Part shown: positions 5,874-6,375 of the stretch, piece by piece
Numbering within the stretch: position 1 is the first letter of the stretch
Layout: every line of letters starts with the position of its first letter
Source of the DNA: Escherichia phage vB_EcoS_AKFV33
Strand: one strand, 5' to 3'
DNA: 64,000 nucleotides
Sequence record: NC_017969.1
Position numbers and translations under genes: made by a program
The notes under the pieces: model-generated
What the model was told of the DNA's origin: nothing
Seen by the model: the letters and a program-made list of their open reading frames with translations, nothing else
Databases searched by the model: none

Positions 5874-6375
5874 TTTAAGTATTTTTAAGAACTCTCGTAA
5901 AAACTCTTAAAAATACAGACGATACCGGGAGAGTCATAAGTCTCACTCATTAAGTATTTCAAGACAAAATACAGTAACGTCTATTATTTTCCAGTTTAAG
6001 TCAGGGTGACTTAGTGGTTATGTCCTGCGGTATATTGAGGACTCGGTTAGGCTTGGGGTCATGACTTCCCGCCTTTTGCTGCTACTCAACAGGAATTATC
6101 GCGAATTACCTGTGCTATTGTGCACCATTAGTGACATCTCTCATGTCAGCATTTCCCACTTTGTGGATAGCTTGAAAAACTACTCCGATGTGGAGAAAGA
6201 ACTTCACTATCCTAGAATACCTTCTAAAGTTCTTCTTTAGCCTGGACATAGTTAAACCGTAATAAAACTATTCAGCAGACTGGTTGGTTAGTCTGGAACC
6301 AACTACCGCGTGGTTTAGGCAGTGCGCAACTAACCTCGGAAGCTTTTACGTTAAAAGCATCAGTTATCCAGTTCT

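Follow-up and report, generated by a model that had tools for sequence, protein, structure and literature searches.

The apparent gap between a tRNA gene and a tRNA-like element in the tRNA island of Escherichia phage vB_EcoS_AKFV33 (sequence record NC_017969.1) is a large, ornate and conserved phage RNA that was annotated long ago in related phages. The DNA analyzed here, referred to below as the window, comprises 64,000 nucleotides, and the gap, delimited by ARAGORN and Rfam, occupies its positions 5874-6375 (502 nt) on the minus strand, between the gene for tRNA-Arg(UCU) and the tRNA-like element. Judged by homology, this interval is the body of RNAX, the ortholog of rnaX annotated in phage T5. 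We regard it as highly likely that this stretch is a structured non-coding RNA orthologous to rnaX, and as very probable that RNAX is a non-coding RNA of T5-like phages with an ornate, modular fold. This conclusion is carried by the orthology to rnaX, by the lack of a conserved open reading frame (ORF) and by strand-specific base pairing with compensatory changes.

An earlier note on this DNA, made without database searches, had described positions 5880-6370 as an ORF-free transcribed spacer and offered three readings of it. The stable RNA is the one that held, given the rnaX orthology and the compensated pairs, while the decayed gene is not borne out, as no ORF is kept, and neither is the processed spacer, in view of the invariant islands and covarying helices. 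Two of the checks named there were carried out: only tRNA matches turned up when 9 kb of the window, 15 relatives and a 671-nt region were scanned with Rfam, and comparison with the tRNA region of related phages yielded a conserved RNA annotated as rnaX and no frameshifted homologous protein. The placement between the tRNA-like element (6376-6447) and tRNA-Arg (5799-5873), both on the minus strand, is correct; all tRNA genes called by ARAGORN in the first 6 kb of the window lie on that strand. As claimed, no ORF on the transcribed strand of 5874-6375 reaches 60 aa: the longest ones touching it, at 6115-6249 and 6272-6409, have 44 and 45 aa, and the longest of the plus strand 59 and 60 aa. Random sequence with 39% GC would equally give 500 nt free of ORFs, and what exceeds chance here is the conservation and the covariation, not the absence of ORFs. 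The interval is indeed GC-richer than its two flanking spacers (17-18% GC), but hardly differs from the window as a whole (40.5% for 5880-6370 versus 39.0%). Finally, the original boundaries were too narrow. The conserved unit begins at about 6483, since the sequence upstream of its first island, I0, is unrelated between phages, and takes in the tRNA-like element; it covers about 6483-5874 on the minus strand, that is, about 610 nt.

Relation to T5 rnaX and distribution among phages

The window belongs to a T5-like phage. A 901-nt query around 5874-6375 matched 437 phage records, the best match being phage NBEco002 (99.6% identity); a distant BLAST of the 502-nt query matched 504 phage records and a further search of phage records gave 523 with a match. 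In two records, those of T5 (AY543070) and Salmonella phage 5 (AJ604531), the annotation under the match is "rnaX: RNAX, stable RNA with unknown functions". Identity over 100% of the 502-nt query was 92.0% to T5 and 98.8% to phage 5, which places the interval in the T5 rnaX family by homology, and the leader and the tRNA-like part also align with T5. The T5 feature (40848-41566, minus strand) is a single one of 719 nt that extends from the base adjoining tRNA-Arg up to promoter P16-17, and therefore includes both the tRNA-like element and the leader. Synteny agrees: P16-17 and a homolog of T5.081 lie upstream and tRNA-Arg and a homolog of T5.080 (SPFH) downstream, all on one strand, and locus, strand, P16-17 and tRNA-Arg in T5 (AY543070, AY734508) and in phage 5 (AJ604531) are as in the AKFV33 window. 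T5 differs by an insertion of about 87 nt (around 2590-2700 of locus L004), also present in phage C13, which forms an extra hairpin and has a copy of the 23-nt AGUCACCUUGACUUAAACUGGAA island (I8) on each side, in direct orientation.

RNAX homologs were found in Tequintavirus, Epseptimavirus, Sugarlandvirus (Klebsiella phages, with a version of 820-860 nt), Yersinia phage phiR2-01 and Pectobacterium phage DU_PP_V (Hongcheonvirus); 81 Klebsiella phage records carry it. In the homolog alignments invariant short islands alternate with stretches that differ in sequence, have been exchanged or contain insertions, and both the islands and the covarying helices are retained in several genera from at least two subfamilies of Demerecviridae. 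The RNAX region is 91-98% identical to T5 at the nucleotide level, compared with 60% amino-acid identity for the adjacent protein. Priunavirus has the 5' module only: in Providencia phage PSTCR5 the leader, helices P1 and P2 and a P3-like hairpin (about 3765-3950 of locus L223) lie inside a 746-nt ORF-free gap (3228-3972) downstream of a YqeY-like gene. Upstream of this module, the same gap holds an unannotated stretch of about 450 nt with a promoter-like site of its own and a tRNA-like element containing a T-loop (about 3500-3560), which may be a different structured RNA.

Motif scans beyond these records added little. In viral contigs, the I8 motif was found in T5-like genomes only, plus two unrelated contigs (L036 and L053), and the terminal-hairpin pattern mostly in one unrelated coding sequence. 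The metagenome scan with motif GTCACCNTGACNNNAACTGG gave at least about 120 loci, nearly all due to chance as the motif is too loose; among the matches listed, the only genuine ones are L080, L105 and L126, each of them T5-like. Several records carry unexpected names. Phage vB_EcoS_I14 (PP892525) is filed under Felixounavirus yet is 98% identical to the T5-like RNAX region, and T5-like sequences have been deposited as "Campylobacter phage C13" (MG065692, marked UNVERIFIED) and "Listeria phage LM 4-11-1" (OR847212).

As an entity rnaX is already known, having been listed in GenBank since 2004. In the searchable literature we found no paper describing the structure, family or function of RNAX, and Rfam 15 contains no family for it. 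To our knowledge, the limits of the conserved unit, the architecture supported by covariation, the distribution and mosaicism across Demerecviridae and the YqeY-fold neighbor are new within that literature. Published work on the T5 tRNA region touches on adjacent parts: the viable deletions T5Mos (30661-38625) and T5-123 (29191-32442) stop short of rnaX, if numbered as in AY543070 (PMC11464382), and the papers on DRT9 and PARIS deal with other parts of that region.

Base pairing and architecture of RNAX

Among 22 representative homologs no ORF of at least 35 aa keeps its frame and extent, and the strand, start and end differ as well. The plus-strand ORF annotated in some records is truncated in T5 and, despite conserved DNA, lies in different frames in phages R2 and SE7. 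These shifts speak against a decayed gene. The spurious small "hypothetical proteins" and the odd Sec, Pro and pseudo tRNA calls that annotation pipelines place in RNAX result from its lack of an Rfam family.

The pattern of substitutions was assessed in MAFFT alignments folded with RNAalifold, one for each of the 5' and 3' domains, as the central region is too mosaic to align as a whole. For the 3' domain (alignment A1, 15 sequences) RNAalifold proposed 38 pairs, 34 of which were counted: 96.8% are standard pairs, versus 31-56% when the 3' partners were slid by 1-3 columns, and 11 pairs are changed on both sides. For the 5' domain (alignment A2, built from 13 sequences with 36 nt of leader included) the 37 pairs are 97.7% paired, versus 27-46% when slid, and 19 are changed on both sides. 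Together, 30 of the 71 pairs are compensated. In neither alignment did any of 500 shuffles reach the observed values, although such controls overstate significance for 13-15 related sequences; more weight falls on the slid-partner controls and on the compensations seen in distant genera.

The structure is specific to one strand. Many pairs are G-U in the minus-strand sense (A1 columns 214:227 in 10 of 15 sequences, 217:224 in 12 of 15), and since these would be A.C mismatches in the complement, the structure belongs to the minus-strand transcript. Folding z-scores of nine homologs range from -1.7 to -4.6, the sense strand being the more stable in eight of them, and the full-length minimum free energy (MFE) fold of the window sequence recovers most of the helices. 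The features are collected in Table 1.

In the 5' domain, helix P1 (12 pairs, 99.4% paired, six of them changed on both sides) connects the leader with the GGAUAACU island, so that the tRNA-like element lies between its strands. This element is a branch inside the RNAX fold, clamped by the leader and by the first 15 nt of what had been taken for a spacer. C.C and G.G oppositions occupy fixed positions of P1 in all genera examined, including that of Providencia phage PSTCR5, which suggests a specific recognition motif and not a plain helix. P1 is kept with new compensations both in PSTCR5 and in Eps7-type phages that lack the tRNA-like element; in Eps7 and GSW6 the element is replaced by another hairpin domain, and in PSTCR5 by a short hairpin. 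ARAGORN made no call at 6376-6447, and the tRNA model (RF00005) left an 18-nt anticodon region unaligned, with no 7-nt anticodon loop. As a covarying stem at the anticodon position closes a 4-nt loop, the element cannot decode. In records of relatives it is labeled tRNA-OTHER, pseudo-TAA or Sec(TCA), and an 86-nt Klebsiella version Pro(CGG). Farther downstream, some relatives have a 50-60-nt multi-helix insert closed by GCUG/CAGC in place of P3.

The central region consists of modules that are exchanged among phages. In module c, which is also present in Klebsiella phages (85% identity), the 24 pairs are 99.6% paired versus 40-58% when slid, and in its candidate pseudoknot helix an A-U pair has become G-C in T5, the one compensatory change there, with one G.U intermediate also seen. 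Longer-range contacts are indicated by four islands. In DU_PP_V both GUGG islands (I0 and I4) read ACGG and both CCAC islands (I3 and I7) read CCGU, and this change in concert points to two long-range helices, with I0 pairing with either I7 or I3. The possible topologies are I0:I7 with I3:I4 or I0:I3 with I4:I7. In the MFE fold of the window UAGUGG (6482-6477) pairs with CCACUA (6019-6014), and an A-U to U-A change common to two Epseptimaviruses also agrees with I0:I7, so that this pairing is weakly favored.

In the 3' domain, the outer stem of H1 occurs in at least six complementary versions (AGGC/GCCU, AGGU/ACCU, AGAC/GUCU, AAAUU/AGUUU, CCUAGAC/GUCUAGG and GUGAC/GUCAC), while its loop, which contains the palindrome UCAUGA, is invariant but for one G/A position in every homolog with a 3' domain. 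In H2 all five pairs are changed on both sides (95.8% paired), and the stem of H3 is kept with another loop in DU_PP_V (AAGUC-UACGCAU-GACUU). MFE folding independently gave the shape of the three-way junction for four subtypes too divergent for sequence alignment, and in its hairpin b three of four pairs are changed on both sides. Pairing in the terminal hairpin is complete (100%, 15 sequences) and includes many G-U pairs, possible on the minus strand only.

Table 1. Elements of RNAX and its immediate neighbors, from upstream to downstream in the direction of transcription (window positions).
Element	Position	Strand	Basis or remark
T5.081 homolog, 144 aa, YqeY fold	6562-6996	-	Pfam; PDB profile; AlphaFold2 and Foldseek
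Sigma-70-type promoter TTGCTA-17-TATAAT	6525-6553	-	10/12 consensus positions; equals T5 P16-17; BLAST register with T5
Variable AT-rich 5' stretch with hairpin UUAGAUG..CAUCUAA (6513-6491)	6484-6517	-	Not conserved between phages
Island I0 AUAGUGGGGUGU, start of conserved unit	6472-6483	-	In all homologs, including Pectobacterium and Providencia phages
P1, 5' strand AUCACUUAUGUAGU	6454-6467	-	RNAalifold; pair counts; also MFE and Providencia phage
tRNA-like branch: acceptor-like stem, D arm, canonical T arm GGUUCGAAUCC	6376-6447	-	Rfam tRNA model, 35.5 bits (gathering score 29)
P1, 3' strand ACUGGAUAACUGAU, with conserved GGAUAACU island	6359-6372	-	RNAalifold; pair counts; MFE
P2 hairpin GCUUUUA-ACG-UAAAAGC	6342-6358	-	Covaries: GGUUC/GAACC, GCUUAU/AUAAGC, GCGUA/UACGC
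P3 hairpin (6335-6318), then single-stranded island I3 UAAACCACG (6317-6309)	6309-6335	-	Homolog alignments
Central variable region of exchangeable modules	6165-6303	-	Mosaic presence and absence among phages
Hairpin GUUGGUU/AACCAAC	6303-6283	-	Central region
Two-stem element	6281-6239	-	Central region
Module c, 71 nt, candidate pseudoknot GGAUAG (6212-6207) : CUAUCC (6170-6165)	6235-6165	-	Pair counts
Island I4 AAAGUGGGAAA, second GUGG	6152-6162	-	In nearly all homologs; GGGGG in phage TrudiGerster
Hairpin GACAU-GAGAG-AUGUC	6147-6133	-	Compensatory variants GGCAU/AUGCC, CACG/CGUG
Helix ACAGG..CCUGU, loop with conserved CGCGAUAAUU motif	6113-6089	-	Compensatory variant CUAGGAAG/CUUCCUAG
H1, two-part stem, apical loop AAGUCAUGA (6067-6059)	6049-6074	-	Loop family-wide G(G/A)AGUCAUGACC
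H2 hairpin GUCCU..AGGAC (6042-6022) and island I7 AUAACCAC (6021-6014)	6014-6042	-	Pair counts
H3 mini-hairpin and island I8 AGUCACCCUGACUUAAACUGGAA (AGUCACCYUGACUUAAACUGGAA)	5989-6011	-	Homolog alignments
Three-way junction: closing stem, hairpin a, linker CUUAAU (I9, 5954-5949), hairpin b	5915-5984	-	MFE
Terminal 17-bp hairpin GUAUUUUUAAGAGUUUUU-ACGA-GAGUUCUUAAAAAUAC, 38 nt	5879-5916	-	Ends 5 nt before tRNA-Arg
tRNA-Arg(UCU)	5799-5873	-	ARAGORN call; Rfam 49.3 bits

Transcription, processing and neighboring genes

The earlier note had also placed a promoter reading through the region at 6525-6553. A match was found there, and it coincides with T5 P16-17. The consensus match alone would prove nothing, because the promoter scan returned no more promoter-like sites than shuffled sequence (23 versus 24.1); it is the coincidence with the annotated T5 promoter that validates the site. 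The predicted start of transcription is near 6517-6511. No terminator-like site lies between this promoter and tRNA-Arg, the first on the minus strand being at 4793-4762. A leftward transcript from a P16-17-type promoter would contain RNAX, tRNA-Arg and the SPFH-domain gene (5764-4817) and would run to that terminator, and RNAX would be an early RNA made by the host RNA polymerase. From what is generally known of tRNA maturation we infer that RNase P would cut at the 5' end of tRNA-Arg, which would most likely set the 3' end of RNAX at 5874. The 17-bp terminal hairpin would then remain 5 nt from the new end and block 3' exonucleases, presumably as a 3' stabilizer of the released RNA. In Epseptimaviruses in which a 169-aa ORF separates RNAX from tRNA-Arg, the hairpin stays with RNAX.

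Both edges of RNAX accept other genes in relatives. At the position of the variable 5' stretch (6484-6517), some have an insertion of 146 nt or a gene for an HNH endonuclease; in phage bux, an ORF for an HNH_3 endonuclease lies between the YqeY-like gene and RNAX (1444-1926 of locus L021). At the other edge, phage 26175IV has a 169-aa ORF without a Pfam match between the terminal hairpin and tRNA-Arg (177-686 of locus L017), and in Yersinia phage phiR2-01 a GIY-YIG-looking ORF follows RNAX (about 160-700 of locus L175, on the RNA-sense strand). Mobile genes at both edges fit the modular mosaicism of the RNA itself.

The gene upstream of the promoter encodes the T5.081 homolog, whose predicted fold is that of YqeY. 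The AlphaFold2 model has a mean confidence (pLDDT) of 86.8, and its top six Foldseek matches in the PDB are all YqeY proteins (E 2.8e-5 to 1e-3, TM-score 0.52-0.69), the next match having an E value above 0.5. Sequence profiles are weaker: Pfam YqeY scores 16-25 bits in three orthologs (cut-off 27), and the PDB profile 1NG6 gave an E value of 0.019. On the criterion of fold the protein belongs with YqeY, and its homologs are annotated variously as "tRNA amidotransferase" or "recombination-related exonuclease". The gene is syntenic with RNAX or its 5' module in Tequintavirus, Epseptimavirus, Hongcheonvirus and Priunavirus, and a related-locus search with the protein gave seven loci. YqeY-like tails of GatB, GatE and a GlnRS have been implicated in binding of the tRNA D-loop (PMC2811023). 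The modeled YqeY-fold protein may be a partner of the tRNA-like branch, which we regard as a lead.

Other elements of the neighborhood deserve mention. The next gene upstream (6996-7166, minus strand), a homolog of T5.082, encodes a 56-aa protein covered over its whole length by Pfam DUF7616 (E 4.7e-33). A second match to the tRNA model without an ARAGORN call, at 4011-4085 on the minus strand (Rfam 38.2 bits), may be a tRNA-like "stable RNA" akin to T5 RNA1, RNA2 or RNA3. The T5 record (AY543070, 27500-41700, locus L222) lists seven more "stable RNAs", namely RNAIII, RNAI, RNA1, RNA2H, RNAIV, RNA2 and RNA3, and homologs of these probably exist in the AKFV33 tRNA island.

Alternative explanations and comparison with known RNAs

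Beside the relatedness of the aligned sequences, several points weigh against RNAX as an ornate non-coding RNA or against the roles proposed for it below. The label "stable RNA" is a depositor's note in GenBank, and no experimental basis for it was found in the searchable literature. The invariant islands, including the palindromic loop, never vary, hence covariation offers no test of them, and the GUGG and CCAC islands leave a choice between the two topologies. By TBLASTN, the YqeY-like gene was found in only three Klebsiella phage records versus the 81 with RNAX, so that the link between the two is not universal, Sugarlandvirus being the exception among the genera. Finally, the analogy with the large phage RNAs GOLLD and ROOL is one of context and size, because no Rfam model matches.

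Among the alternatives, the likeliest is that RNAX is a precursor cut into several smaller stable RNAs, a tRNA-like piece and pieces of 100-200 nt like T5 RNAI, RNAIII, RNA1 and RNA2. This is partly compatible with a structured RNAX, but we consider it unlikely. The T5 tRNA region does contain the seven short "stable RNAs", the acceptor stem and T arm of the tRNA-like branch could be recognizable by RNase P, and the Providencia phage, having the 5' module alone, demonstrates that modules can exist separately. However, P1 is formed by sequence from both sides of the tRNA-like element, and the covarying GUGG and CCAC islands contact each other at distances of hundreds of nucleotides, which argues that the pieces work together even if nicked; moreover, the depositors of T5 annotated one 719-nt RNAX.

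Highly unlikely is a cis-acting leader (an attenuator, a riboswitch or a T-box-like element) for tRNA-Arg and the SPFH gene. Co-transcription with both, with no terminator between, would suit such a role, and the UGG and CCA islands recall elements that sense tRNA ends. Yet the downstream neighbor varies: many Epseptimaviruses have the 169-aa ORF there, Sugarlandvirus has small ORFs and Priunavirus yet another ORF. Rfam returned no riboswitch or T-box match, and there is no terminator/antiterminator pair, as the last hairpin lacks a U tract.

That the region is a passive transcribed spacer or a decayed tRNA array with no function of its own has only a very slight chance of being correct. It does sit in a tRNA island, one of its elements is a degenerate tRNA, and deletion and recombination are concentrated in the tRNA regions of T5 (PMC12483538). 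Against this, even at E values up to 10 there is a single tRNA-like match; the nucleotide identity to T5 far exceeds the amino-acid identity of the adjacent protein; and the invariant islands and the 30 compensated pairs extend across at least two subfamilies, the covariation largely refuting a passive spacer. An element acting at the DNA level (a replication origin, a packaging or nick site, or a target of homing endonucleases) is just as improbable: the conserved palindrome GTCATGAC could bind a protein on DNA and homing-endonuclease genes flank RNAX in several phages, but covariation preserves pairing in RNA, the G-U pairs and the greater stability of the sense strand point to a transcript, and the annotated T5 nick site is elsewhere (39746-39747). 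Barely credible, lastly, is a decayed or unrecognized protein gene, or small peptides such as that of the plus-strand 59-aa ORF at 6061-6240 (a hypothetical protein in some records), since the short hypothetical coding sequences annotated at RNAX on either strand in several GenBank records disagree with each other as described above and substitutions in RNAX track base pairing rather than codons.

Known RNA classes were also considered. Group I and II introns, tmRNA, RNase P RNA, 6S RNA, riboswitches, T-box, GOLLD, ROOL and YrlA were all rejected, as Rfam returned only tRNA.

As to what a structured RNAX might do, it would be a trans-acting structural RNA in the tRNA island, comparable to GOLLD and ROOL, a function that we guess from the tRNA-island context, the palindromic loop and the YqeY-fold gene upstream. 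The tRNA-like branch would engage tRNA-handling proteins, with the adjacent YqeY-fold protein as a candidate partner, and the RNA would possibly self-associate via the palindromic loop. We put forward a trans-acting function through the branch or through oligomerization tentatively, as somewhat unlikely on present analysis. A more far-reaching proposal, rather unlikely as a whole, would make RNAX a third class of giant ornate tRNA-island RNAs, proper to phages of Enterobacterales and functionally analogous to GOLLD and ROOL: it would form a particle with the YqeY-fold protein (of the tRNA D-loop-binding type) via the clamped branch, form homo-oligomers via the loop, and act early on host tRNA metabolism or on tRNA-targeting defense nucleases.

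The nearest comparisons are with RNAs of phage tRNA clusters. The other T5 stable RNAs are likewise non-coding, lie in the phage tRNA cluster and are presumably freed by tRNA-processing enzymes; they are 73-172 nt long, and on inspection no motifs shared with RNAX were evident. The species 1 and 2 RNAs of T4 are likewise non-coding RNAs within phage tRNA clusters, presumably freed in the same way. Among bacterial RNAs, the Y RNAs offer a structural parallel. In 2014, Chen et al. reportedly described a tRNA-like module of YrlA that has acceptor, D and T arms, does not decode and is held by a helix formed from flanking sequences; RNAX shares this helix-clamped arrangement. The two differ in that RNAX is about five times longer and has no Rfam match, and that synteny suggests a YqeY-fold protein instead of Ro as its candidate partner.

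GOLLD and ROOL, both of them large RNAs of phages, occur near tRNA islands; the GOLLD linker sometimes contains tRNAs, and assembly proceeds through kissing loops (PMC12286853, PMC5737381). With its many covarying helices and its position beside tRNA genes, RNAX fits the context by which these sources describe such RNAs. All three are phage-encoded, tRNA-adjacent and 0.6-0.85 kb long, with covarying helices, multistem junctions and both conserved and variable regions. Covariance models of GOLLD and ROOL gave no match at E values up to 1 in 9 kb of the window and in 15 relatives, or up to 10 in the 671-nt region. Homo-oligomeric cages, made of RNA only and joined by kissing loops and A-minor contacts, have been demonstrated for GOLLD and ROOL, whereas in RNAX the palindromic UCAUGA loop is a hint in that direction, and the hosts differ, RNAX belonging to phages of Enterobacterales from the family Demerecviridae. 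The structures of GOLLD and ROOL are known, but what they do is a long-standing puzzle, and experiments in their hosts are difficult. RNAX brings the question of large tRNA-island RNAs into T5, a tractable E. coli phage with hundreds of sequenced relatives, and the structural model makes a 20-year-old note of an "unknown stable RNA" testable through the P1 clamp, the GUGG/CCAC pairs, the palindromic loop, the terminal hairpin and the YqeY-fold protein.

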